From an uncultured Candidatus Saccharibacteria bacterium (GTDB lineage Bacteria > Patescibacteriota > Minisyncoccia > Phycocordibacterales > UBA2100), in assembly GCA_964434285.1 (NCBI GenBank), contig CAYSUJ010000001.1, positions 240,564-304,563 of the forward strand: 64,000 bases of DNA, written 5' to 3'. Made by a program: the position numbers and the translations under genes. Shown piece after piece: positions 1,415 to 56,069 of this stretch (the stretch's first letter is position 1; every line of letters starts with the position of its first letter). The notes under the pieces were generated by a model. The model had not been told where the DNA came from and ran no database searches. It was given only the letters and a program-made list of their open reading frames with translations.

Positions 1415-2053
1415 CTACTTCCTGGGCAAAATGACGTCGAGGATTGGATCAAGTGCTGTGGGTGTGCGCAGCGGCGATGTTTCCGCGCTCGCCAACTTAA
1501 ATGTGGAACGAAGATCTCCGTCGCCCTCGATTGAATCGACAATAAGATATTTCATGTCGCGGCCGACACGAAGTTCTGTTTTTAAGAGAGCGATGAACTC
1601 CTCGCACGGGTAGGGATATACCCACACACTATGCTGCATATGAACGAAACCGATTTCGCGCAGATGTTCTCGAATCCGAAAGCGAATGTGTCGGCGTTGT
1701 TCTGGGATATCAAAAATAAGCACTCTCCATTTCCCGTCCCACCGCTTCGGCGGAGGAACCTTTGCAAATACCAATGCGAGTGACCTCAAATATTTCTCAC
1801 CTTTGCTCGTCAGATACAGGTGACCATTCTGTTCCTCAAGATACCCCTGCCTTTTGAGGCGCCTCCGAGCAGCAGCGATGTATTCAGTTTGGCGTGGCTT
1901 GGGAAAGAGGCCAAGCCTTTTCATGCCACCGAGCACATTCGGCGCGACAAGTGCTATAGAAAGCGCACCTGCAACCGCAACGCTACCCAGAAGAATCGCT
2001 CTCAATGATTCATTTCTGCGCCGTTTCTTGCTTTTATCTTCAAGATCACCCAT
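1415..2053 (-). CDS. PaaX-family-like transcriptional regulator with an N-terminal membrane helix
   Basis: C-terminal WDGKWRVLIFDIPEQRRHIRFRIREHLREIGFVHMQHSVWVYP matches the PaaX_C (Cas2-like fold) pattern W-G-W-[LV]-FD-PE...R...GF..L...VW. N-terminal hydrophobic stretch AILLGSVAVAGALSIALVAP. Confidence 0.5.
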   Translation of the reverse strand: MGDLEDKSKKRRRNESLRAILLGSVAVAGALSIALVAPNVLGGMKRLGLFPKPRQTEYIAAARRRLKRQGYLEEQNGHLYLTSKGEKYLRSLALVFAKVPPPKRWDGKWRVLIFDIPEQRRHIRFRIREHLREIGFVHMQHSVWVYPYPCEEFIALLKTELRVGRDMKYLIVDSIEGDGDLRSTFKLASAETSPLRTPTALDPILDVILPRK

Positions 2054-3089: not shown

Positions 3090-3982
3090 AGATTGAGATA
3101 GTGCCCAACCGAGAGCAGCGCGAGACCGCACACGATGAGGCCGACGCCCGTCGCGGATATTGTGCCGCCATGCCCATGCGTGCGCGAACCCTCCCGCTTT
3201 GGCATGCGCTTTGCAAACAAAATCGCGAATACAAACAGAAAGACGAACTGCAAACCGGCGAGCGCGTTTACGATCGTCACGGAGCCGAGCGAGATCGCAA
3301 AGGCCGTGAGTATGCTTGCGACACCGCCGATTACTTTGTTACCCATAACGAGCCCCTTTGAGCGAGACGATGAGTGTCTGCCACCGTGCGTGATCGCTGC
3401 GCGCCACGGTGGCACGATGAGAAGCCCGAGCGCTAAGACCACGTTTGCTGCACGCGTCCAAAAAAATCCATCAATGAACGGGACTTCAAAGAATACGAGC
3501 TTAAATGTGAACGCAACCAGCCCGAAAAAGAAGCCCGAAAGGAGCGTAAAGGAAAGCGCGTTCCGAGAGAAATGGAAGTGAGAGATGAGTGCTGTTCCTC
3601 CCGCAAGCAGAAGAACAGGCAGCACGAACGCGGTTGTGATGTCGTCGTCGATCCAGAGCCCGGCAAAAACGAGTGTCGTAATCGCTGAAACGGCTCCCAC
3701 GACCGGCGCTACGTCTGAGGCCCGACCATGGGTAAGCGCCGAATAGAGGCAGAAAATGGCGGCGACAAACGCGGCTGCGTTAATAAAGGAAAGCGCGAGC
3801 GCATGCACACTGGGGATGGAAACGAACGGAACAAATACAACTACAAAACCCGAAAGCAAAGAAACATAAAACGTGTAGACAATTGGGCGCCCGATGTGCG
3901 TTGCACGCAGAACAATGTGGCGATCAATCAAGACGGAGACCGCGTAGAGAAACTGTGCCACTATCGCGAGCGCGAGATACAT
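3086..3982 (-). CDS. Polytopic membrane protein, DMT/EamA-like
   Basis: 298 aa with about 10 predicted TM helices in two halves. Confidence 0.45.
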   Translation of the reverse strand: MYLALAIVAQFLYAVSVLIDRHIVLRATHIGRPIVYTFYVSLLSGFVVVFVPFVSIPSVHALALSFINAAAFVAAIFCLYSALTHGRASDVAPVVGAVSAITTLVFAGLWIDDDITTAFVLPVLLLAGGTALISHFHFSRNALSFTLLSGFFFGLVAFTFKLVFFEVPFIDGFFWTRAANVVLALGLLIVPPWRAAITHGGRHSSSRSKGLVMGNKVIGGVASILTAFAISLGSVTIVNALAGLQFVFLFVFAILFAKRMPKREGSRTHGHGGTISATGVGLIVCGLALLSVGHYLNL

Positions 3983-7448: not shown

Positions 7449-7793
7449 CGTGAATGGGTGGTTGGGAGATTAGTGGTAGTTGCCGGGGCGGCGCCAACGC
7501 CGACACCAGCTTCCCTGTCGCGAACGCGCCGGGTCGGTGATGAACGCAGGAAGAGCCTCCTCCGGCCGGTAGATCTGCCGGACGCCATTCGGGTGCCTCA
7601 TCGGCGCCTGAATGACGATCATCCTCGAATCAACGATACGCCCGCCGCGACGGGTCTCGACCTGAATCTGCATCAGCAGTTCTCCCTTTTTTTCAGGTTG
7701 ACGCCGAAAATATACACTACACTTGCTGTTTTGTCAAGACCGTGGTTTGCAAGCAATTTCCTCATTTCGGGCGAAATGAGGAAATTATGGTTT

Positions 7794-9261: not shown

Positions 9262-9294
9262 CGGTGCGGCAAGCTCCATTGGAGCTTGCCGCAC
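9262..9294 (+). terminator. Perfect 15-bp hairpin GGTGCGGCAAGCTCC-att-GGAGCTTGCCGCACC 3' of the 8511..9248 gene
   Basis: Read directly. No U-tract follows. Confidence 0.4.
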
Positions 9295-9355
9295 CGCCTT
9301 GTCCCCCATGAGCCCCACACATACAATAGATAAAGGCACTCCTCGTAAGAGGAGC

Positions 9356-11269: not shown

Positions 11270-11308
11270 ATACGATAACTATACCCGACCGGATAGAGTT
11301 ATCGTATG
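11270..11308. promoter_or_regulatory. 36-nt palindromic element, copy 3 (ATACGATAACTatacccgaccggatagAGTTATCGTAT)
   Basis: 11-bp perfect arms. Core CCCGACCGG is shared with copies 1 and 2. A TGCTAGAAT -10 box follows at 11345-11353. Confidence 0.5.
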
Positions 11309-25672: not shown

Positions 25673-25742
25673 CAGCGAGCGCGGTCATGAAAGAAATCTC
25701 TCGCGATCATTCCGCACGCAATCCTCAAACCCCACGCGAGCC

Positions 25743-25852
25743 GGTGACGTGGCACACGCCTCTCGAGGGTCTTTCGCAGCGCGTCGGCGCGAGAAGGAGC
25801 AAATTTTCAGCAGAAAATTATGCGACCCCCGAGAGGCGTGTGCCACGTCACC
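25743..25852 (+). repeat. Hairpin-embedded conserved element, copy A
   Basis: 22-bp perfect outer inverted repeat GGTGACGTGGCACACGCCTCTC / GAGAGGCGTGTGCCACGTCACC. Encloses the conserved core GGGTCTTTCGCAGCGCGTCGGCGCGAGAAGGAGCAAATTTTCAGCAGAAAATTATGCGACCCCC. Confidence 0.7.
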
Positions 25853-26030
25853 GCGAGCCCCCTTCTTCATGAAAAAATAGTTAAGCCATGATCTTCATCA
25901 AAAATACATTGACCAGAAATGGAGTACCCGTAAGATTATCGATGTGTTATTCGTGTCTCGCAGTGTGGCGTTGTCGGAAACAACGAGCTCTTTGTTCCTC
26001 TCACCGATCGGGGTTCATACGCTTCTCATT

Positions 26031-26909
26031 ATGAAGCGCCTTTCTCTTCGCGATGTTTTCTCTTCGCATCTAAACGTCATTCTTATCTGCTCGCTCATCC
26101 TCGGCGCGACAGCATTTCTTGTTCCCCCACCACCTCAACGCACACCAAATGTTGCCGCTGTCGTGACTGCATCGAGCCCCTTTCAATACCACTTCGACAC
26201 GAACGACGTGCTTCACGAGTCCAGTGACTACGACCAAAGCACGAGCCCCTATTGGTGGCTCAATTCTGGCGCGCAATTACGTCTCAAAAACGGCGTTGGA
26301 TCGACCGTGCAAGGAAACCTTCCGTCGGTGGATCGTTGGCGCCTCATGTACGCCGCATCGAATCCCGTCGACACCGATAACGGCTACCACCCCCAGAATA
26401 TTTTCCGTCTCGTCACGAAGGCAACGGGAGCGAGTATGCGTGTCGAATCGCTCTTTAAGATTCACGCTGACAACTGGAGCACCTCTCCTAACCGAAATTC
26501 GTCAAACGGGCTCCTGCTCATGAGCTCCTACGTCGATGGCAACTCTCTCTACTACGCAGGACTCCGCGTCGACGGTACGGCGGTTATCAAGAAAAAGTAC
26601 AAGGGCACCTACTACACCATCACGCAACCAAAGGTTTTCTCGGGCACGTACTCTCGTGAAGGCAAGGTCAATCTCATTCCTCATAACGAATGGCTCGGAC
26701 TACGGTCAGACACGAAGCGCAATGCCGATGGAAGCGTCTCCATCACGCTTTCAATGAAACGCGAAGGTTCAAACACGTGGACAAAAATTGCAGAGGGTCG
26801 CGATGATGGGCAATACGGCGGCACGCCGCCTATGAGCCAAGGACACGCAGGCATCCGCACCGATTTCATGGACGTGAGCTTCGAGTCGTTCCGCATGGAA
26901 GCGCTCTAG
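26031..26909 (+). CDS. Hypothetical signal-anchored extracellular protein
   Basis: MKRLSLRDVFSSHLNVILICSLILGATAFLV signal anchor. No catalytic motifs recognised. Confidence 0.5.
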   Translation: MKRLSLRDVFSSHLNVILICSLILGATAFLVPPPPQRTPNVAAVVTASSPFQYHFDTNDVLHESSDYDQSTSPYWWLNSGAQLRLKNGVGSTVQGNLPSVDRWRLMYAASNPVDTDNGYHPQNIFRLVTKATGASMRVESLFKIHADNWSTSPNRNSSNGLLLMSSYVDGNSLYYAGLRVDGTAVIKKKYKGTYYTITQPKVFSGTYSREGKVNLIPHNEWLGLRSDTKRNADGSVSITLSMKREGSNTWTKIAEGRDDGQYGGTPPMSQGHAGIRTDFMDVSFESFRMEAL

Positions 26910-26917
26910 GTGGGGTC

Positions 26918-27018
26918 TCATCATAACATGTTTGACGGGGTCTTCGGAGCGCGTCGGCGCGAGACTGAGGGAAATTTCAGCAGAAATTTACCCGACCCCG
27001 GAGAACATGTTGTGATGA
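26918..27018 (+). repeat. Hairpin-embedded conserved element, copy B
   Basis: Outer arms TCATCATAACATGTT / AACATGTTGTGATGA. Core GGGGTCTTCGGAGCGCGTCGGCGCGAGACTGAGGGAAATTTCAGCAGAAATTTACCCGACCCC. Confidence 0.7.
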
Positions 27019-27135
27019 GATACTCCTTCATCCTCACTTCAGGGCACATCGCGTACAGTGAACATGTTCCGGCAAGTGCGGGACTGGTCGAAAAGCGCGC
27101 TTATGCGCCCATTACCAGCCGTAACAACACCTCGT

Positions 27136-36720: not shown

Positions 36721-36776
36721 CCCAAGGCACCCATCCCCAAGGTCCCCAAGGCGACGCCTTGTTCCAAACAAGCCAA

Positions 36777-37448
36777 TCAGAGAGCCATATTTTTATAGTA
36801 CTCTGCAGCATCTTCCAGGACCTCTGCCAGTTCCACATTTGTTTCGAACAAAGTGCGTGTTTCCGGATCAAGTACTAAGCTTTCAGCCCTCGGTGCACCA
36901 AAATAGTATCCGGCGCTGCTATATTCATAATTCAAAAGACGCTTCTTGAGTTGTGCAATATCTGCCCTGAGAATCCCCCGCTTCCAATGTGGTTCGAACA
37001 ATTCTGCAGGATTAAGATGGAGATAATTCGGTATGTGCATGAAGTGCGCTTCACTCGTGATTCTTCGTGCACGAAATGGTTTGAGAAATAGATTTCCCGT
37101 TCGTTCGTTGCGTTTATTGAAATACATCGTATACGCAGTACCAACTTTTTGCATATAAGAAGAAATGCCTCCTTCTACTATCTCCTGCATCACTATATGA
37201 AAATGATTTGGCATCAGACAATACGCAGCAATAGATACGAGAGGATCGCCGCGTATATGTCTGAAGATCTCATCGTGCGAAAGGAAGTTAACGTCATTTT
37301 GATGTATTGCTTTCGTACTGTTACTCAGATACAAAGCCTGAAGAAAACGCCGATAGTCATGAGGCGAACAGAAAACACGCCTCTTGTCGACGCCACGATT
37401 GTAACAATGATACCATTCACCGACTCCAAAGGACTCTCGCAACGCCAT
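36777..37448 (-). mobile_element. Y1 (HUH) transposase of the IS200/IS605 TnpA / RAYT family
   Basis: YHCYNRGVDKRRVF and AYCLMPNHFHIVMQ match the Transposase_17 His-hydrophobic-His and catalytic Tyr-region signatures. Flanked by palindromes sharing CAAGGCGACGCCTTGTTC. Confidence 0.8.
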
Positions 37449-37461
37449 TGCCTCTACTATA

Positions 37462-37502
37462 CCACCCCACAGAACAAGGCGACGCCTTGTTCTGTGGGGT
37501 GG
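37462..37502. repeat. Perfect 20-bp hairpin CCACCCCACAGAACAAGGCG-a-CGCCTTGTTCTGTGGGGTGG, 13 nt upstream of the RAYT start
   Basis: Read directly. The same CAAGGCGACGCCTTGTTC core is at 36747-36764, after three CCCAAGG tandem repeats (36721-36752). Confidence 0.6.
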
Positions 37503-39554: not shown

Positions 39555-40181
39555 TCACCACGCCCAGAAAAATCCAAGCACGCGCGCGAATAACGCTGGC
39601 ATCGACTTGATCGCGCTTTCAAAACGAGTCATGAACGGAGGAGAATGCCCCTCAGTTGATGAAGAAAGACGTGCCTCAATGGATTCTTCATTCCCGTGCT
39701 CGTCTTTGGTAGTCGCACTCACTTCCGCTCCACTCTCATCGACGCGCGTCGAGACTTCAAGGTGCATCGGCTGTCCTGCTCCCACTTTCTTCTCATACTC
39801 ACGCGTTTCTGTCTCGCCATTTCGGGATGTCTCCACCTTCACCCTTGCCTCACCTCCCTCTGAACCGACATTAATGTATGTTTCCGAGCGCGACGACGCA
39901 CTCACATCGCCATCAGAAACCGAGGAGCCGCCGCTTCCCACTACCTTCCCACCAGTTGATACGGAAGAATGATTTTCAATAATGACAGCGCCACCCTGCC
40001 CCTCCGCAGCCTGCGACGCCTCACGCACGAGTTCGTCGACCCAAGACTCGGCGCTTACAAAACTCGGCACACCCAGAAAAACCACAGCCACCGCGAAGGC
40101 GCGCGGGAACGTGCCTTGAGCGAGCATCGCGCAGGGCACTCGCACACGTGCGAACACTTGGCAGAAGCTCGTTTTTTTCAT
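39555..40181 (-). CDS. Hypothetical secreted Ser/Gly/Glu-rich protein
   Basis: Signal peptide AFAVAVVFLGVPSFVSA. Low-complexity acidic body. Confidence 0.45.
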   Translation of the reverse strand: MKKTSFCQVFARVRVPCAMLAQGTFPRAFAVAVVFLGVPSFVSAESWVDELVREASQAAEGQGGAVIIENHSSVSTGGKVVGSGGSSVSDGDVSASSRSETYINVGSEGGEARVKVETSRNGETETREYEKKVGAGQPMHLEVSTRVDESGAEVSATTKDEHGNEESIEARLSSSTEGHSPPFMTRFESAIKSMPALFARVLGFFWAW

Positions 40182-40230
40182 GCGTGCAATCAACATACGG
40201 CTCGAACAAGGCACGCTCACGCGCGCAGAG

Positions 40231-43149
40231 CTACAATTCAAACGCCTCCACAAACGGCACTAAGCTGAAGAAGAGTCCTGAGAACAACCGGAGCGGGAGC
40301 CCCATCTGCACTTCCGTGCTTGGCTTTGGCGCGAGCAGGTTTACGCTCTGTATTGGCTTCGGTGCAAACGCATTCTGCTTCGGCGCCACCTGCCCAGTCT
40401 CATTTTTCTTGAGAAGCACGTCGAGTCCGACACCCGGTGCCTTCACGGAACCGCGGAACCGCGAGATCTCACTCAGCTGCGCCTCGGAGAGATCGAATGT
40501 CATTGCGTTCTGGCAGGCGATCTCGTTCACTTTCTTCTGTGTCGTGTAGTAGACGTTCCCCGTCGGTCGTGAGATGCCCCATGGCGTGAGGATGTCCGTC
40601 GCATACTTGCTCTGGAAGCGCATGACCGCAGCAAGGGTCTTCGAATCATAGGTACCGGTGGTGTCCAAGGTCTCGCCCTCGTATGAATTGAGGAATGTCT
40701 GGAGCGCCACCACCTGTCCCGGCGCATTCTGCTTCATTGGGCGAATGTATTCCGTAAGGAGGGGGGCGCAGGTCTCCTCTCCCAACACTTCGCCACCGGG
40801 CAAGATCTCGATAACCTTCTTCGCCACAATCGTCGCGAGTGGAATACCTGTGTCATACATACCCGTCATCTTTGCCGTGTTGGTGTAGTAGCCCGGCTTT
40901 ACGGTCGCACCAAAATCAACCGTGTATTTAATGGTAACCACCTCTTTTTCCTTAAGGGTGCCCAAATCCCAGCGCTGCGTGCCAATCTCCTTGCCATCCG
41001 GTGAGACCAAGACGTCAGTCACCACCACCTTCTTAAGCTTTCCGCCCTGATTATCGACGGTGATCACATATTCAACCTGTGTTGGTCCCGAGATCGTGCT
41101 TGCGCTTGCTTCCTTTGTGAGGATCACATTCGGCTTATAGTAGCTCTTGCCGCCTGAGCCGCCACCCGAGCCACCGCCGCCGCCACCGCCTCCACCGATA
41201 ACCTGCTCCGTAATGTCGCCAAGAATATCTGGCTCGCCTGGCTTTACGCCGAACTGCAGATCGCCGTCCCAATCGCCTGCGATGTTGAACATCGCGAAGA
41301 TCCAGTCTTGCCCAATGATCGTCTGGTTGACCACGTTCAAGATCGAGAGGAATGCGTCTGCATCTCCCGTGTTAATCGTTGCCGACTGCCCTTCCGCCGT
41401 GTTCGCGCCCGTCCTCGCCTCCACAATCGCACCGTTCAAGATGCGCGCGTAATTCGTGGTCGAGGCGATAAGTCCGTCATGTCCTGCACGATCGCTCGCG
41501 CCACCCGCGCCACAGATGAGGTGACCAAACTCCGTCCCTACGTGCTGGAAGCCCTCCGGCATCTGTACCACTTCACCATTCCAGTCTCCGCCGACAGAAA
41601 CCACGAAGCAGATAGGCGCACCGATCTGGTTCACAAAGTTTGCAACGGTCGTCTTTGCACGTGCATCACCTGTCGTGATATCAGAGCCTTCGGTCGAGAG
41701 CGCCGTGTTATCGCCCGTAAGCGCTGTTGTCGTACCGTTGTTCAAAACACCCGCGTCGTTGTCCACCTTTAAGACACTGTCGCGACCAAGTGTCGCACCC
41801 GTTGAGAGTGTCTTAAAGAATGCGCCATCTGGAAGCAGAATGTCGCCGGAAAGGTCACCCTCGTTATGCATTAGGAGAATGAGGTAGCGGGAATCAACGA
41901 GCTGAAGGTTACCGAAGTTCACGATACCGCCATAGGCAAGCGCGTCCCCTGTGTCGATCGTCGCATCGCCCTCTTCTGAGTGGGCACGATTCTCGCCAGA
42001 GAGCGAGCTGACCACGAGTTCATTCTTGATCTCGACCTCGTTCTCAGTGTAGAGGCGGAATTTCGCGTCGTCGGTGTCATCGCAACCCGTAAGGTTACAT
42101 GCCGTTGTGACGAGTCCAGAGAAAAGATCAATGATGCGCTGCGTGAAATCAAGCGCATCGCCGAGAGGATTGCGAAGGAAGAGAATGTTTCCTGTCGAAT
42201 TTGTGATTGCGATATTGAAGAGTGAAATGAGATAGCCGAATGCCTTTGAGCGTCCGGTCACGATAAGCGCATCACCTGGCTCCGTCACCTCGGTTGCACC
42301 CGTGAGATCCGTCTGCCCTTCGGTTGAAGTTGCCGTGTCGGCGAGTTCATCAGTAATAGATTCAGCGGTAGTACTTGCACCGGCAACGTCACCAAGGTTA
42401 GCCTCATCACTCGAGCCGCCGCCAGAGCCTCCACCCGAACCATTCGCAGAGCCGCCATCGCCGCCTGAGCCACCCGAACCACCGTCACCACCAGTTGCAC
42501 CGGAATCGGCCCCTGTTTCGCCATCTGCTGTTGCGTCGGCACCTGCGCCATCTCCACCTGTGCCACCCGTGCCAGCGTCAGCGCCACCACCAGTGCCGTC
42601 GCCGCCGTCACCACCTGCTCCGCCTGAGCCGCCCGTAGCGTCCGCGCCCGCATCGGTACTTTCGGAATCAGCCGTGCCGGTGCCGCCATCGCCACCCGCA
42701 CCACCATCGCCAGCGTCGCCAGTTGAAGCATCCCCACCAGTGCCACCATCACCACCCGCGCCACCCGTTGCGCCGGCATCGGTGCCATCACCAGTTGCGT
42801 CCGCCGTGCCGCCATCGCCGCCTGTACCCGCATCGCCGCCGCTTGCACCAGAACCACCGTCGCCGCCAGTTCCTGCGTCCCCGCCAGTTGCATCGGCGCC
42901 GCCATCTGTCCCGCCATCCGTCGACTCAGAAGTCGCCTCAGGCGCAGGATCTGAGGTTGTCTCCGTTGTTTCCTCAACAACAGGTTCCGGTGTTGGCTCG
43001 GGAGTAGGTTCGGAGACCGCCTCAGCAGTGGGTGCAGGATCAGCTTCTTGTGCAAATGCTACAAACGCAGGAAGTGGCGCCGCAAACACAAGAACGAACA
43101 TCGTGACGATGCTCGCAAGCTGCATAGTGATGGAGTTTTTTGTAAACAT
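40231..43149 (-). CDS. Giant (972 aa) secreted surface protein: Gly/Asp/Thr low-complexity N-terminal region, TGDA-repeat beta-domain, poly-Gly linker, C-terminal peptidoglycan-binding-like domain
   Basis: Signal peptide MQLASIVTMFVLVFAAPLPAFVAFA. (GGDGG/TGGDA)n. C-terminal LQTFLNSYEGETLDTTGTYDSKTLAAVMRFQSKYATDILTPWG resembles PG_binding_1. Confidence 0.7.
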   Translation of the reverse strand: MFTKNSITMQLASIVTMFVLVFAAPLPAFVAFAQEADPAPTAEAVSEPTPEPTPEPVVEETTETTSDPAPEATSESTDGGTDGGADATGGDAGTGGDGGSGASGGDAGTGGDGGTADATGDGTDAGATGGAGGDGGTGGDASTGDAGDGGAGGDGGTGTADSESTDAGADATGGSGGAGGDGGDGTGGGADAGTGGTGGDGAGADATADGETGADSGATGGDGGSGGSGGDGGSANGSGGGSGGGSSDEANLGDVAGASTTAESITDELADTATSTEGQTDLTGATEVTEPGDALIVTGRSKAFGYLISLFNIAITNSTGNILFLRNPLGDALDFTQRIIDLFSGLVTTACNLTGCDDTDDAKFRLYTENEVEIKNELVVSSLSGENRAHSEEGDATIDTGDALAYGGIVNFGNLQLVDSRYLILLMHNEGDLSGDILLPDGAFFKTLSTGATLGRDSVLKVDNDAGVLNNGTTTALTGDNTALSTEGSDITTGDARAKTTVANFVNQIGAPICFVVSVGGDWNGEVVQMPEGFQHVGTEFGHLICGAGGASDRAGHDGLIASTTNYARILNGAIVEARTGANTAEGQSATINTGDADAFLSILNVVNQTIIGQDWIFAMFNIAGDWDGDLQFGVKPGEPDILGDITEQVIGGGGGGGGGSGGGSGGKSYYKPNVILTKEASASTISGPTQVEYVITVDNQGGKLKKVVVTDVLVSPDGKEIGTQRWDLGTLKEKEVVTIKYTVDFGATVKPGYYTNTAKMTGMYDTGIPLATIVAKKVIEILPGGEVLGEETCAPLLTEYIRPMKQNAPGQVVALQTFLNSYEGETLDTTGTYDSKTLAAVMRFQSKYATDILTPWGISRPTGNVYYTTQKKVNEIACQNAMTFDLSEAQLSEISRFRGSVKAPGVGLDVLLKKNETGQVAPKQNAFAPKPIQSVNLLAPKPSTEVQMGLPLRLFSGLFFSLVPFVEAFEL

Positions 43150-43399
43150 ACGTATTTAAAGTTGGTTTTCCCTGGTAATGGTGGAACTGCGACCGTCGTC
43201 AAAAGTTTTTTCCTGCTGGAAAAACTTTCGACCCTGTCTCGCCCCGACGGGCTCCGGCCTTGCGACGGGGCCCCAACCCCGTCTCACCCTCTCCGAGAAC
43301 CCGAGAGCATTTCCCTAGCAGCTAGAAGCTAGTACCTAGAAGCTCTTACCGATTCTCGTGAGAAGGAGGGAGGTTGCCCTCCCTGCCTTCTTCCGCCAT

Positions 43400-44272
43400 T
43401 TAGCGGATAACGCGGATCAAGAGCGAATTGATGAGATTCACTGCACCCGAGTTAGATACTGCAGCACCCGTTACGATGAGGCCGCCAGCACCGCCGTTGC
43501 CGCCGTTGCCGCCGTCACCACCTGAGCCTGCCTTACCACCGTCTGCATCTGCATCTGCATCAGCATCGCCGTCTTCAGCGTCTGCATCTGCGTCAGCGTC
43601 AGCTTCGCCGCCGGTTGAGCCGTTGCCAGCATCATCACCGTCGCCACCGAACGAGCCATCAGCCCAGTTCCAGCCGGTCTTAGCGTATGCGTCTGTCTTG
43701 TTGACGAGAGCGCCTCCGTTAACAACTGCGATTTCAACTTCATTGTCTGCATCGTAGTCGACATCGTCGAAATCTTCGACATCGTCGAGATCAGCATCAC
43801 AGCCACAGCCCTCAACCTTGATGTCGGTCGAGTTGATGACGTTCATCGTGCCAGCGTTTGCTTCTGCATCGCCAGTTGCGATTGTGCCACCAGCACCGCC
43901 TGCGCCGCCGTTACCGCCGTCGCCGCCTGAGCCGCCCTTACCGCCGTCTGCATTTGCATCAGCATCTGCATCGCCGTATTCGTCAGCATCTGCATCTGCG
44001 TCAGCATCAGCGTCGCCGCCGTAGCCGCCGTTGCCGCCCTCCTCGCCGTCGCCGCCGTAGGAGCCGCCTGCCCAGTTGCCACCCGTTGAAGCAGTTGCAG
44101 TCGTCGAGTTCACGACGAATGCGCTGTTCACGACAGTGACCTTCACATCGTTGTCCAAGTCAACGTCGATCTCCGAGTCGTTGTAGTCTGCAAACGCTGG
44201 GAGAGCCGCCGTCAACGAAAGGAGTGCTGCGATCGTTGCAACCGCTGCACCGTAGTTCATTGTCTTTGTCAT
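43400..44272 (-). CDS. Secreted Gly/Asp/Ala-rich repeat protein with an internal tandem duplication of about 120 aa
   Basis: Signal peptide. Two homologous halves, each with VVN-x-T, GG-NWAGGS-GGDG, (DA)n and TGDA-x-N-x-G-x-N-I-NS segments. Confidence 0.6.
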   Translation of the reverse strand: MTKTMNYGAAVATIAALLSLTAALPAFADYNDSEIDVDLDNDVKVTVVNSAFVVNSTTATASTGGNWAGGSYGGDGEEGGNGGYGGDADADADADADEYGDADADANADGGKGGSGGDGGNGGAGGAGGTIATGDAEANAGTMNVINSTDIKVEGCGCDADLDDVEDFDDVDYDADNEVEIAVVNGGALVNKTDAYAKTGWNWADGSFGGDGDDAGNGSTGGEADADADADAEDGDADADADADGGKAGSGGDGGNGGNGGAGGLIVTGAAVSNSGAVNLINSLLIRVIR

Positions 44273-44755
44273 AATTATTTTTGAATTTAGAAGATTCTGT
44301 TAATTCCCTTTTAATCTCCCATTCCGCCCCCGTACGGATGGCGTAATGCTGGAGTCCTCGACCTCGTGTCTGTGTAAGAGCCGCTAAGCCCCCCGTGCAG
44401 TCCACGGCGCGATTCCTCGGGGGAGGAATCGCGCCATACACTTCACGCGTTTTCCTCCGAACGAACAGCCAAAACACCACGAGCAGAAACTCGCGACGTT
44501 AATACAAAAAAACCAGTACTGAAAATCTTGTAATGAGTCATGCGCTCGAAAGCGCTGGTTTCCCCATCTCACTTAACAAGCTCGCGCTTGTTATGGAGAT
44601 TGCTCACTGATTTCCCTTACTGGTTTCCTTACCATCTCACTTTGCGTAGAGATGATGCAGGGATTATCTCGCACCCACACGTGAAGTCAATGTTTTTTTC
44701 GTGTGGATAACGCCGACGATACAAATATCTGCATGCGTCAATAATTTTTAAAAGA

Positions 44756-44790
44756 AAAATCCCCGGAAAGTTCTGGGGATTTTTCTTTCT
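44756..44790. terminator. Bidirectional terminator AAAAATCCCC-ggaaagttct-GGGGATTTTT
   Basis: Perfect 10-bp stem with A/T runs on both sides. Confidence 0.6.
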
Positions 44791-44968
44791 TCGAGGTAAG
44801 GCTTCTGAACGGGCCCAAGACAGTAGGGAAACCAGCGCAAAGCTGTCTGTCTCGGGACCCGTTCCGAAGTCCTACACGCAACGAACATTCATACCAACAC
44901 CCGGCAAATCCGCGACACAGTGTCTGTCTTGGAACCCGTTTCGAAGCCGAACCAAAGATCATTCTCGC

Positions 44969-44994
44969 GCAGCGGGCGCTTACGCGCCCGCTGC
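44969..44994 (-). terminator. Hairpin GCAGCGGGCGC-ttac-GCGCCCGCTGC directly 3' of the 45003..46130 (-) gene
   Basis: 11-bp perfect GC-rich stem 9 nt after the stop. Confidence 0.5.
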
Positions 44995-45002
44995 CCATTC
45001 AC

Positions 45003-46130
45003 TTACCAGAATCGGTCAAACATTCGTCGGAAGAAGTCAGAAATTCGATTGCTTGGGAGCGTTACCACTCCTGCATCTTCACGCTGGCCTTCACCCTTAT
45101 CGTCACCCGCGTTCTCTACCGGCGCGGCAGGTGCCTTCAGTGCTGGAGCTATCGCACGAACTGCTGCCGTTTGAACGGTACCTCCCACCTTTCCGGTTTC
45201 GACGATACTCTGCTCATCAGTCGAAAGCGGGAACTCTTTGCCCTCACAGTAGATCTCATTCACCTGCTTACGGGTCGTGAGGTACACGAATCCTGTCGGC
45301 GAAGTGAGCCCCCATGGCATCAAAATCTTCTCGGCGTACTTGCCCTGAAACGCGAGGACTGCCGCGTGAGTAGTGTCATCAAAGACACCGTTCACTTCCA
45401 CCTCGAACCCATCCTTCTTGAGCACATCCTGAAGTCGCTGCACTTGCTCAAGCTTGTTCTCGCCCCCCTTCTTCAGGAAGTCGGTGAGATACATGTCGCA
45501 GGACGTAACACCCTCGAGATATGCTGGAGTCGACGTGCCGAGAACGCTTCCGCCTCCACCACCTCCGCCACCTCCACCGCCACTCCCACCGCCCGAGACG
45601 GGGTCAGCTTCGTCAGAGTCCCCTGAATTAGCGCATCCAGGATCCTCCATATCAATTTTTCCATCGGCATCATTGTCAGTCCCATCGCTACAGGCTGGGT
45701 TACTACCTCCACCGCCACCGCCATTATCCTCGTCAACGCATTGATCATCGACAAGAACCTTCCCCTCAGGAACTGATTCCTGGGCGCCGTCTATGTTAGG
45801 ACAAACGTCCGTTGGTTCTTCGCCACCTCCACCGCCATCACAGTTAGGCGGAAGGTTACCAAGCTCGTCAAAAATATCGCATGGATCAACAGGAACGTCC
45901 GGAACGTCGCCACCGCCATTGCCTCCATCAGAATCACCGCCTCCACACGCGCTTTCAAGTTCTGCAGGAATTGGCTCGCCTGCCGCCTGGAGCGCGGCGT
46001 ACGTCTCGCAGATAATGTCCTCCGCAAGCGTATCTGCATAAACCTCACGCTGGTTTCCCAAAACCACCGCAACCAATGAGAGAAACGCGAGAATAATCGC
46101 GATTCCTATGTGTGCTTTTCGTAGTGTCAT
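45003..46130 (-). CDS. Secreted Gly/Asp-rich protein with C-terminal peptidoglycan-binding-like domain
   Basis: Signal peptide. (G)n and DxDxDG-like acidic stretches. C-terminal LQDVLKKDGFEVEVNGVFDDTTHAAVLAFQGKYAEKILMPWG is paralogous to the C-terminus of 40231..43149. Confidence 0.65.
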   Translation of the reverse strand: MTLRKAHIGIAIILAFLSLVAVVLGNQREVYADTLAEDIICETYAALQAAGEPIPAELESACGGGDSDGGNGGGDVPDVPVDPCDIFDELGNLPPNCDGGGGGEEPTDVCPNIDGAQESVPEGKVLVDDQCVDEDNGGGGGGSNPACSDGTDNDADGKIDMEDPGCANSGDSDEADPVSGGGSGGGGGGGGGGGSVLGTSTPAYLEGVTSCDMYLTDFLKKGGENKLEQVQRLQDVLKKDGFEVEVNGVFDDTTHAAVLAFQGKYAEKILMPWGLTSPTGFVYLTTRKQVNEIYCEGKEFPLSTDEQSIVETGKVGGTVQTAAVRAIAPALKAPAAPVENAGDDKGEGQREDAGVVTLPSNRISDFFRRMFDRFW

Positions 46131-50166: not shown

Positions 50167-50170
50167 ACGT

Positions 50171-50599
50171 ATGCGCCGCTATTACTACCTCCTAACTCTC
50201 ACGTTCGTTTTCTGTATACCAACCATTATTGCGGCAGTATTGTTACAAGACGTCATCGCACTTCGTGAGCTCGTGCCATTCGTCGTACTGGTAACCATCA
50301 TCGGCAGTATCTGGGATGTCTGGGCAACACGCCACGGCAAGCGAGACCGAGTCTGGCTCTGGCAATTCCACCAATCTCAAACGCTTGGACATCGTTTCCT
50401 CGGACTTCCGATTGAGGAGTATCTGTTCTACACAGCAAGTAGCATATACATAATTTATATGTGGGAAGGGCTCAAGGTTATGGCTGGGGGGGACCACACG
50501 TGTCTACATCGTAATTTTCGGGCTGGCACTGTGGACGCTTCTTGCAATCGCATTTCCGTATTTCTTCCGCAAGAAAGGCGACAAATTTATCAACTGACC
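50171..50599 (+). pseudogene. Lycopene-cyclase-domain membrane protein with a +1 frameshift at a G7 tract (50488-50494)
   Basis: IWDVWATRHG...GLPIEEYLFY matches the lycopene cyclase domain. After GGGGGGG the annotated frame reads non-protein-like sequence, while the +1 frame reads TTRVYIVIFGLALWTLLAIAFPYFFRKKGDKFIN*, a clean TM helix plus basic tail. Confidence 0.55.
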
Positions 50600-50605
50600 T
50601 AGCAC

Positions 50606-50717
50606 GTAGGTGGCGGCAGATACTTTGAGGGGGTCTTTCGCAGACCGACGGGGCGAGAAGGAGGGAATTTTCAGCAGAAAATTACCCGACCCCCGAGAAG
50701 TATCTGCCGCCACCTAC
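50606..50717 (+). repeat. Hairpin-embedded conserved element, copy C
   Basis: 20-bp perfect outer arms GTAGGTGGCGGCAGATACTT / AAGTATCTGCCGCCACCTAC. Core GGGGGTCTTTCGCAGACCGACGGGGCGAGAAGGAGGGAATTTTCAGCAGAAAATTACCCGACCCCC. Confidence 0.7.
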
Positions 50718-51148
50718 TGCGCCACCTTCACGTGCGGCGAAGGAAGTCCCTTTTCACACGACGCACATTTACACCCAATCGGCTTAATGAATTCCTCAAA
50801 ATATTCCTCATCGTAATCAATCGTGAGCTCTTCACCCACCGCAATATCCTTCTGCGCGTAAATCATGATTTTGCCATCCTCAATCTCCGCCTCAACGTTT
50901 GGGTGGCAATCATGATTTATATAGCCCGCAGTATTTTCTGGCACGGGGCCATCTAGCGTCCACTCATCATCCACCTCGAAGAGATAACGTGAGTCGGATT
51001 CATCGGCGGTGGCGGTGGGGATCTTTACGCCCGTATACTCAATAAGAAAATCGCCGTCCTTAATCGGTACCCGCGCAAAAAGCCCCAAGCCCGTGCCCGG
51101 CCTGCCCTCCCGCACCTCAAAACGCGGATCTATGCTGATTTCCCCCAT
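50714..51148 (-). CDS. SET-domain protein (lysine methyltransferase-like)
   Basis: GLGLFARVPIKDGDFLIEYTG, NHDCHPN (NHSCxPN) and ELTIDY motifs. Post-SET Cys cluster CKCASC. Confidence 0.75.
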   Translation of the reverse strand: MGEISIDPRFEVREGRPGTGLGLFARVPIKDGDFLIEYTGVKIPTATADESDSRYLFEVDDEWTLDGPVPENTAGYINHDCHPNVEAEIEDGKIMIYAQKDIAVGEELTIDYDEEYFEEFIKPIGCKCASCEKGLPSPHVKVAQ

Positions 51149-51214
51149 GGCGTCGGCTATCGTAACACACAGGCGCACCTTTCAATACTCGTGCCCTTCG
51201 GTGATAATCCGAGA

Positions 51215-55712: not shown

Positions 55713-55869
55713 CCCCGCTCGCGAGGTTGCCAGAAACACCTCTTTCGGGTCGCTGTCTGCGCGTGCTCGCGCAGCGCTCACTCTCGGCTCGTCAGCCTGC
55801 GAGAGACCCTCATGAGGTATTTCTGTCACCCTCGTCTCGCTCAACAAATCGCACTGTTCTCAGCGAGAC

Positions 55870-56069
55870 GACGATGCGGGGCGATGCTTTGACGGGGTCT
55901 TTCGCAGTGAGGAGGGGTTGGGGCCCCGCCGCAAGGCCGAAGCAGCTTGGCTGTGAGGCGGGGTCGCGCAAAATCGCAGCAGCGATTTATGCGTGACCGT
56001 CGGCGCGAGAAGGAGCGAATTTTCAGCAGAAAATTACGCGACCCCGGAGAAGCACCGCCCCGCATCGTC
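55870..56069 (+). repeat. Hairpin-embedded conserved element, copy D, with an insertion of about 85 nt in the core
   Basis: Outer arms GACGATGCGGGGCGaTGCTT / AAGCAcCGCCCCGCATCGTC. Core ends GGGGTCTTTCGCAG ... CGTCGGCGCGAGAAGGAGCGAATTTTCAGCAGAAAATTACGCGACCCC. The insert carries a second AGCA-loop hairpin AAATCGC-agca-GCGATTT. Confidence 0.7.

Follow-up and report, generated by a model that had tools for sequence, protein, structure and literature searches.

Copy C, a hairpin between two convergent genes, and a possibly mobile family of structured repeats with a conserved three-way junction in CPR/Patescibacteria

Copy C lies between two convergent gene ends

The DNA analysed here (the window) is a 64,000-nt stretch, positions 240,564 to 304,563 of contig CAYSUJ010000001.1, from an uncultured Candidatus Saccharibacteria bacterium. 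At 50606-50717 of the window lies copy C, a long hairpin that belongs to a family of structured repeats which may be mobile. As an earlier reading of the letters alone (the sequence-only reading) had described, copy C is placed exactly between two convergent gene ends. The plus-strand open reading frame (ORF) 50171..50602 carries a PF18916 Lycopene_cyc domain, and ORF 50714..51178 on the minus strand encodes a SET-domain protein (PF00856, 75.6 bits), the stop codon of which, read as CTA at 50714-50716, is located inside the 3′ arm of the hairpin, again as described. The same reading had the element starting 4–7 nt after the lycopene-cyclase gene, which is approximately right: the TAG of that ORF precedes the arm by 3 nt, and the TGA in the frame of its homologues (50595-50597) precedes it by 8 nt.

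Copy C has the layout GTAGGTGGCGGCAGATACTT-TGA-GGGGGTC-[52-nt core]-GACCCCC-GAG-AAGTATCTGCCGCCACCTAC. The outer arms (50606-50625 and 50698-50717) are fully complementary, which bears out the 20-bp perfect palindrome reported earlier, and with the inner helix GGGGGTC/GACCCCC the inverted repeat extends to 30 nt at 90% complementarity. The 71-nt core of copy C is unique at up to three mismatches, and shuffles give no matches. The core reported as common to copies A, B and D also stands, as copy C falls into one direct-repeat family (D4) with positions 25767, 26937 and 55983. Folded as RNA, copy C has a minimum free energy of −79.7 kcal/mol (z-score −10.4), and the covariance model R1, which was built from the family, scores it at 81.8 bits (E = 1e-25), compared with 18 bits on the reverse strand. 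The features of the locus are as follows.

50606..50625, plus strand: outer 5′ arm of helix P1, GTAGGTGGCGGCAGATACTT, complement of 50698-50717; P1 columns covary in the family
50626..50635, plus strand: internal loop TGA, forming tandem G.A opposite GAG 50695-50697, then the 5′ strand of P1b, GGGGGTC
50636..50658, plus strand: P2, comprising P2a UUUC/GAGA, the 3-nt bulge GCA and P2b GACC-GACG-GGGC
50659..50687, plus strand: joiner J2/3 AGGA and P3 (GGG / AATTTTC, loop AGCA, GAAAATT / bulged A / CCC)
50688..50717, plus strand: 3′ strand of P1b, GACCCCC, loop GAG, and 3′ arm of P1, AAGTATCTGCCGCCACCTAC, which holds the SET stop
50718..50725, plus strand: 3′ junction TGCGC(CAC), the putative final bases of the inserted DNA, which would encode the new SET C-terminus ..VAQ*
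50167..50605, plus strand: rest of the segment missing from relatives, with the lycopene-cyclase ORF (50171-50602), frameshifted at a G7 run
50714..51178, minus strand: SET-domain gene, with last codons and stop apparently supplied by the insert, judging from a comparison of C-termini

The lycopene-cyclase ORF is frameshifted at the seven-G run 50486-50492, and the homologous C-terminus (..FPYFFRKKGDKFIN*) lies in another frame. An independent Logan assembly encodes the identical 143-aa product (P0241); the gene is thus either a real pseudogene or carries a homopolymer error shared by both assemblies.

The core folds into a covarying three-way junction

To describe the fold, we used an alignment of 31 copies (A1), with 500 shuffles and slid pairing partners as controls. 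Standard pairs occupy 97.8% of alignment cells, compared with 73.5% in the shuffled and at most 50% in the slid controls. Compensatory changes are present in 22 of the 33 pairs, and none of the 500 shuffles reaches any observed measure.

Family members are 95–130 nt long. The outer helix P1 is long, nearly perfect and variable in sequence between loci (about 18–30 bp, often with tandem G.A pairs), and its arms are the most variable columns of the alignment; their ends share a short CGG...CCG and are otherwise similar at the subfamily level only, such that terminal inverted repeats are not conserved between copies. P1b (GGGUC/GACCC) is nearly invariant in the 31 sequences, and P2a (UYUC/GAGA) continues directly from it, followed by the 3-nt bulge GCA. 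P2b reads GCGC-GNCG-GCGC and becomes GGCU/AGCC in F, L126b and L152 (L numbers denote contigs and loci outside the window), a covariation that fixes the register of P2, and GACC/GGGC in C. The variant internal hairpin noted earlier in copy C is real, GACC-GACG-GGGC replacing the form found elsewhere, and in the register set by covariation it amounts to one compensated pair and one A.G mismatch. The joiner J2/3 (RKGAG, 5 nt) links P2 to P3, in which 3 bp are followed by an A bulged out on the 3′ side and by 7 bp capped with an A-N-Y-A tetraloop. Nine of the ten P3 pairs show compensatory changes; almost every copy has the A-N-Y-A loop, and over 90% keep the bulged A. There are 23 invariant columns, including the unpaired G and A of the GCA bulge and the GA of the joiner, and the unpaired nucleotides are invariant across genomes of 40–59% GC.

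The fold is specific to one strand, that which reads GGGUC...ANYA...GACCC. With RNA parameters, this sense strand folds more stably than its complement in 31 of 32 copies (mean difference 7.8 kcal/mol), and with DNA parameters it does so in all 32; R1 scores fall from about 90 bits on the sense strand to about 20 on its complement. P1 contains 52 G.U or U.G wobbles compared with 8 A.C or C.A, and the 4-bp helix P2a contains 11 U.G pairs. This asymmetry would reflect selection on the single-stranded form, because deamination bias on this C-rich strand predicts the opposite direction.

By inspection, the core does not fit the hammerhead or the group II domain V/VI consensus, and it has no Rfam match to the twister-sister, pistol, hatchet or K-turn/box C-D families. 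Searched as a whole with Rfam 15, the window gives no match at the gathering score and, in E-value mode, generic miRNA-hairpin matches far below threshold; it contains no tRNA gene.

The element is present or absent at orthologous sites

In the window, R1 and repeat finding locate five full copies (A, B, C, D and F) and a sixth match (E), all six downstream of a co-oriented gene. The copies other than C are as follows.

25743-25852, plus strand: copy A, R1 93.3 bits, with a 7-bp direct repeat GCGAGCC at 25736-25742 and 25853-25859
26910-27023, plus strand: copy B, R1 73.3 bits, directly after the TAG of ORF 25944..26909, without GCGAG repeats
43186-43315, minus strand: element E, of a second family, R1 20.3 bits (E = 4e-4)
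55722-55834, minus strand: copy F, R1 98.7 bits, head-to-head with D, not listed by the sequence-only reading
55870-56069, plus strand: copy D, R1 30.3 bits, with a second-family element of about 90 nt (55908-55997) nested in P2

The score of copy D is low because of the element nested in its P2; L091 holds a D-like copy without the nested insert. Copies F and D form a head-to-head pair with 3′ ends outward, 35 nt apart, and the 3′ end of F is 10 nt from the stop codon of a DsbA-like gene.

Contig L161 is syntenic with the window around A and B (glycosyltransferase, deacetylase, a ~300-aa ORF and histidine kinase; proteins 84–87% identical). It has no R1 match around these sites and retains the exact empty sites, with no palindrome at either. 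At the site of copy A it reads ccccacGCGAGCCcccttc, with one GCGAGCC, where the window reads ccccac-GCGAGCC-[110 nt]-GCGAGCC-cccttc; at the site of copy B it reads ctcTAG|tccttc, and the window holds 114 nt between the two halves. In the more distant L162, an outgroup, R1 likewise has no match around the syntenic genes, and both A and B are missing. Because L161 and L162 both lack the elements, the parsimonious conclusion is that A and B inserted in the lineage of the window, and because the empty sites in L161 have no palindrome, arms and core arrived together. We also considered that the arms might be inverted copies of target DNA made at insertion, and rejected this, as the arms of A and B are not found in the empty sites.

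At the locus of copy C, five relatives (L155-157, L159 and L160; SET 68–92% identical) have the genes VIT1 and SET abutting or overlapping, with no palindrome, no lycopene-cyclase ORF and no element. This comparison of SET 3′ ends goes against the earlier proposal that the outer palindrome is an old terminator of these genes. The homology of the SET protein to L155 and L159 ends after ..H(V/M)K(V), the C-termini being ..PHMKAKTSLSE* (L155), ..PHMKVKKVD* (L159) and ..PHVKVAQ* (window). Judged from these alignments, the window appears to carry an insert of ~560 bp (50167 to about 50725) between VIT1 and SET, made up of the lycopene-cyclase ORF and copy C, which would have replaced the C-terminus and stop codon of SET. 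In L158, the VIT1/SET junction (3433-3513) holds unrelated AT-rich filler of ~80–95 nt with internal inverted repeats. Insertion seems to recur at this junction.

L163 and L164 have the order VIT1, lycopene-cyclase ORF, SET, as in the window. The outer arms of their hairpin (GCGCAGTAGCTGGTG..) and the SET end ..AQ* are homologous to those of copy C, and P1b is kept as GGGTCG/CGACCC; the 88-nt interior is unrelated to that of C and has no R1 score. The lycopene-cyclase ORF (ORF143) and hairpin are present in the window and L163, and L155, a closer relative, has neither. At the orthologous loci L124 and L135, which have flanks 80–86% identical and the same arms, the P3 stems differ at 7 of 7 pairs. 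From the L163/L164 arms, the L124/L135 P3 stems and the nesting in copy D, it seems that interiors can be exchanged within a retained stem.

Two Logan short-read assemblies of this organism, L001 (SRR14932609) and L002 (SRR14932608), end at copy A, within 91 nt and 113 nt, respectively, downstream of the deacetylase gene; the final 33 nt of L002 are matched by R1. Assembly of these genomes is broken up by the repeat.

Copies are flanked by GCGAG and lie close to stop codons

The pentanucleotide GCGAG is located within a few bases outside P1 on the 5′ side in 17 of 32 copies, on the 3′ side in 14 and on both sides in 13. By chance, 2.8% would be expected on each side (p of about 1e-18 for 5′, 5e-14 for 3′ and 1e-32 for both). 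Copy A has the 7-bp flank repeat GCGAGCC; no such repeat flanks B or C. A conserved internal CUCGC, formed by the 5′ strand of P2a and the bulge, is exactly complementary to GCGAG. This segment, UCUCGC in the majority and UUUCGC in C, is the complement of GCGAGA, in copy C through one G.U wobble, and GCGAGA is found on the 3′ strand of P2 as well. Native CTCGC is not enriched after stop codons when element-associated cases are discounted by eye (not computationally).

In ~19 of 32 copies, a convergent long ORF (136–1271 aa) stops −3 to +25 nt from the 3′ end of P1, with a mode of 10–13 nt, and the 5′ side of P1 shows no comparable regularity of ORF ends. Copies also occur between co-directional genes, and several, such as L126b, are antisense to both neighbouring genes. 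Orientation relative to GC skew is 19 versus 8, a weak test that is confounded by coding-strand bias.

In L126 (11700-12701), a head-to-head pair of first-family copies, L126b and L126a, brackets an ORF resembling S-adenosylmethionine-dependent methyltransferases, the TAG stop of which is the TAG of the 5′ box ggTAGCGAGA. The pair lies between PD-(D/E)XK nuclease and DsbA-like genes; in the window the same two genes flank only F and D, and in L126 the D-like and F-like members have exchanged places. A further head-to-head pair, in L091 (7108-7714), brackets a membrane ORF of ~115 aa; in these pairs, too, the 3′ ends point outward. Such arrangements suggest that elements can enclose or travel with cargo genes.

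The family as sampled is confined to CPR/Patescibacteria

Outside the window we collected about 35 relatives, all in contigs of the Candidate Phyla Radiation (CPR)/Patescibacteria. The first collection pattern, GCGAGANNGAG..CAGCAG..GACCCC, was too loose: in species-representative genomes, among the at least 119 matches listed, about 115 are chance matches in GC-rich genomes, and L023, L063, L091 and L103 are genuine. These genuine genome loci (at least four) come from metagenome-assembled genomes labelled Minisyncoccia, Ca. Paceibacterota and Ca. Saccharibacteria and from an uncultured bacterium. A pattern scan of metagenomes returned 33 stretches, family members except for L122 and L129, and R1 found further copies in the collected loci. 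As far as sampled, the family is confined to CPR/Patescibacteria. By its protein neighbours, the window itself groups with Ca. Paceibacterota/Kaiserbacteria-like CPR bacteria.

The arm and core of copy C match no viral contig, phage record or plasmid record, and we rejected on this ground the idea that the arms are spacer-like guides. A description of the family was not found in the searchable literature or in Rfam 15; the family is previously undescribed, and its kind is that of bacterial structured mobile repeats.

The element resembles several mobile repeats and matches none of them

The element works most like REP/REPIN, IS200-type palindrome-associated transposable elements (PATEs) and ERIC/Correia-type miniature inverted-repeat transposable elements (MITEs), yet it lacks defining features of each. 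Like the REP/REPIN-RAYT system, it consists of short, ORF-less, high-copy and strand-specific hairpins at gene ends or between convergent genes, with a presumed trans-acting enzyme; the window also holds a Y1/RAYT-like gene. REPs, however, have a conserved palindrome after GTAG and a variable loop or spacer, whereas here the stem is variable and the apical junction conserved. The arms lack conservation, GCGAG is the motif that flanks either side, and no 5′ tetranucleotide of the GTAG type is found.

The likeness to IS200/IS605 PATEs, such as IS608, lies in strand-specific single-strand folding, which the first family shows. IS608 inserts next to a specific penta- or tetranucleotide without true duplication, and the site is read by an internal guide beside the hairpin; by analogy, UCUCGC facing GCGAG could be the guide of the first family; the two segments show no covariation with each other. 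The ends of IS608-type elements are two different subterminal hairpins, whereas the first family has one long hairpin with a junction, its putative guide is 25–30 bp from the GCGAG sites, and no TnpA or TnpB is associated.

ERIC, Correia (CREE), RUP and other bacterial MITEs that fold in mRNA are also imperfect palindromes of ~100–150 bp in transcribed intergenic DNA; they are polymorphic in presence, take up nested insertions at fixed internal positions and may affect mRNA ends. The first family is likewise small, multicopy and polymorphic in presence, with no ORF. Those MITEs differ in having conserved terminal inverted repeats and TA-type duplications, and in having neither a covarying three-way-junction core nor a GCGAG target; in the first family, terminal inverted repeats are not conserved between copies. 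Integron attC sites share with it a structure conserved over sequence, one active strand antisense to the upstream ORF and a start only a few bases from a stop codon. Their conserved outer R″/R′ and variable centre are the reverse of the layout seen here, where the ends are direct GCGAG repeats, not inverted R″ (RYYYAAC)/R′ (GTTRRRY), and the centre is conserved. There is no cassette array and no IntI, and copies are dispersed on both strands. Overall, a variable stem with a conserved apical three-way junction is the reverse of the layout of known hairpin repeats.

The only recombinase-like gene in the window encodes a Y1/HUH transposase of 223 aa (36777-37448, minus strand; PF01797, 26.5 bits, cut-off 23). 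With the NCBIfam model of REP-associated tyrosine transposases it reaches 38.7 bits, below the cut-off of that model, and it has the motifs NHFHIV (HUH) and YLHLNP. A look-up of the exact product sequence found no record. Within the Y1 unit (36745-37502), the gene is flanked by its own hairpins, which share GAACAAGGCG-T-CGCCTTG, and not by first-family repeats: a 20-bp perfect palindrome at 37462-37502 and a shorter copy at ~36745-36763, with none elsewhere in the window. With this gene present, a single-stranded DNA route of the IS200/RAYT kind is plausible for this genome.

A mobile element moving as a whole unit is the favoured reading

On balance, we lean towards the reading that copy C is a member of a non-autonomous mobile repeat family, with arms and core moving as a whole unit. 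Mobility is argued for by the empty sites of A and B in L161, the absence of copy C and the accompanying ORF from L155-157, L159 and L160, the nesting in copy D compared with the intact copy in L091, and the assemblies that break at copy A. The unit that moves would be the P1 arms and the three-way-junction core together. It would land in the very short spacers where genes end, usually with its 3′ end flush against the stop of an opposite-strand gene, and a frequent landing site would be GCGAG, afterwards present on both sides. The conserved junction may provide a handle for a trans-acting enzyme on the folded single strand, the substrate being single-stranded DNA, as in HUH/Y1 transposases, or RNA. 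The internal UCUCGC may help to choose GCGAG sites, and the inserted hairpin could serve as a 3′-end or termination structure for the flanking transcripts. An RNA-level role or RNA intermediate is on an equal footing with the single-stranded DNA route, and is kept in play by the G.U wobbles, tandem G.A pairs and tetraloops.

Several observations weigh against this reading. About 40% of copies, including B and C, have no GCGAG flanks. A classical cut-and-paste or copy-and-paste element should have constant arms, and here the arms are the most variable part, for which our only explanation is old subfamilies together with palindrome-homogenising mutation. Simple whole-unit transposition would not predict L163, with the same arms and another interior, or the P3 swap between L124 and L135. 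The presence of ORF143 and the hairpin at VIT1/SET is phylogenetically patchy, which loss, or a transfer through homologous recombination, would fit as well as insertion. The G.U wobbles, tandem G.A pairs and tetraloops look more RNA-like than DNA-like; an RNA form would need its own promoter, since some copies are antisense to both neighbours. Finally, the hairpins flanking the Y1 gene (GAACAAGGCG/CGCCTTGTTC) are unlike the first-family element, no Y1 gene is found near any other copy, and no enzyme is linked to the family.

The RNA-like features also enter the case for a host function, namely that the copies are structured non-coding RNA genes or a cis-acting mRNA 3′-end module (protein binding, RNase III-type processing of the 25–30-bp P1, or factor-dependent termination) that have multiplied, with a fold selected for the host and not for mobility. 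The covariation is very strong, the unpaired nucleotides hold across genomes of widely different GC, the G.U bias includes the 11 U.G pairs of P2a, and the position of all six window copies after a co-oriented gene implies read-through transcription. We nevertheless consider this explanation unlikely, as presence/absence polymorphism in close relatives, target-like GCGAG duplications and nesting point to mobility, L126b and others are antisense to both neighbours, and no Rfam family, promoter signal or U-tract is found. The two readings are compatible in that a mobile element may be selected at the RNA level.

The sequence-only reading had placed the outer palindrome of copy C exactly where a bidirectional terminator would lie and proposed that the core had been inserted into its loop. 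Generalised, this would make every outer palindrome a locus-specific bidirectional terminator of older date, its loop invaded or replaced by a short mobile core (P1b-P2-P3). This accommodates what whole-unit movement does not, namely L163/L164, which keep the arms of C and the SET ..AQ* end around an unrelated 88-nt interior, and L124/L135, with entirely different P3 stems between the same arms and flanks. It also accommodates the second family, nested in the P2 of D and adjoining P3 in L152, and 'empty' perfect palindromes of 15–20 bp at gene ends (37462-37502, 9262-9296 and 7755-7786). The proposal is mostly refuted and now doubtful: the empty sites of A and B in L161 have no palindrome, the five relatives with abutting VIT1 and SET have no hairpin, the GCGAG repeats lie outside the arms, and no T-run follows the hairpin. 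In addition, residual arm homology in the D-like subfamily (D, L023, L091, L126a, L152 and L154) indicates arms inherited with the core, and the empty palindrome 37462-37502 is part of the Y1-transposase unit.

A composite possibility, which we regard as improbable, is a guide-bearing mobile element of hairpin and three-way junction, made of single-stranded DNA or RNA and possibly going through a small circular stage closed at GCGAG. It would pick sites by UCUCGC pairing, and could have exchangeable interiors (P3, the second family) and carry individual genes, the lycopene-cyclase ORF for example, into the spacers of convergent genes.

We give little credence to the idea that the element, as a folded single strand, is a site at which small gene cassettes recombine, in the manner of attC or CTX-phage attP, with a gene and its downstream element gained or lost as one unit by site-specific recombination at a GCGAG core. 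Such a site would fit the lycopene-cyclase ORF and copy C as one indel, seen at the same site in different lineages, the head-to-head pairs around cargo ORFs in L126 and L091, a folded strand that is antisense to the abutted gene and flush with its stop codon, as is the attC bottom strand, and a short identical core duplicated at both junctions. A and B, however, inserted alone, without an ORF; the window has no arrays, and no integrase-type gene is present among its ORFs; and the flanking boxes are direct repeats, not inverted R″/R′ core sites. That the element is only a repeated intrinsic bidirectional terminator, as its position between convergent genes and very stable hairpin (−80 kcal/mol) might suggest, is very improbable: neither strand has a T-run (U-tract) after P1, such a terminator needs no conserved three-way-junction core of 52 nt with invariant unpaired bases, the structure is strand-asymmetric, and some copies lie between co-directional genes. 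The element may have a 3′-end role that is factor-dependent or purely structural.

If the favoured reading of a mobile whole unit is true, this is a high-copy family across genomes labelled Paceibacterota, Minisyncoccia and Saccharibacteria, with six window copies in 64 kb, in a group whose small genomes have almost no described repeats or mobile DNA. Its covariation is sufficient for an Rfam entry, and it would add a new structured family. The family would account for assembly breaks at such sites, mark recent gene gain or loss at gene ends, and offer a tractable element in which the apical junction, not the termini, is conserved and an internal guide may direct the choice of target. As regards annotation, the C-terminus and stop codon of the SET gene would derive from the insert.

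A second structured family and other repeats in the window

The second family is composed of a GGGGTTGGGGCCCCGYCGCAAGGCCGRAGC hairpin and an A-N-Y-A hairpin with a bulged A. It occurs in the window (43186-43315, minus strand; 55908-55997, plus strand), in L145 (695-770), L131 (4715-4810), L123 (3574-3623) and L152, both alone, upstream of a 972-aa surface-protein gene, and nested inside first-family copies. In particular, it lies within P2 of copy D and adjoins P3 in L152. Element E shares a CGNCGGNGCGAGA segment and the A-N-Y-A hairpin module with the first family.

A 27-nt inverted repeat (85% complementary, 74-nt spacer) lies at 40099-40226, at the junction of two minus-strand ORFs, with GAGCGAGC in its 5′ arm. 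Its R1 score is weak (13.5 bits), and it is not alignable to the first family or to the L163 interior, which itself shows no relationship to the first family.

From 41150 to 45850, GC-rich repeats with a 9-nt period (GCCGCCNNN) are located inside large minus-strand ORFs (40231..43149, with DUF11 and PG_binding; 43400..44272; 45003..46130), which probably encode repetitive Gly-rich surface proteins. A 38-bp palindrome, ATACGATAACTATACCCGACCGGATAGAGTTATCGTAT, is present in three intergenic copies (1375-1412, 2051-2090 and 11270-11307); one of them adjoins a PaaX-like regulator gene (1415..2053), and the palindrome looks like an operator site.

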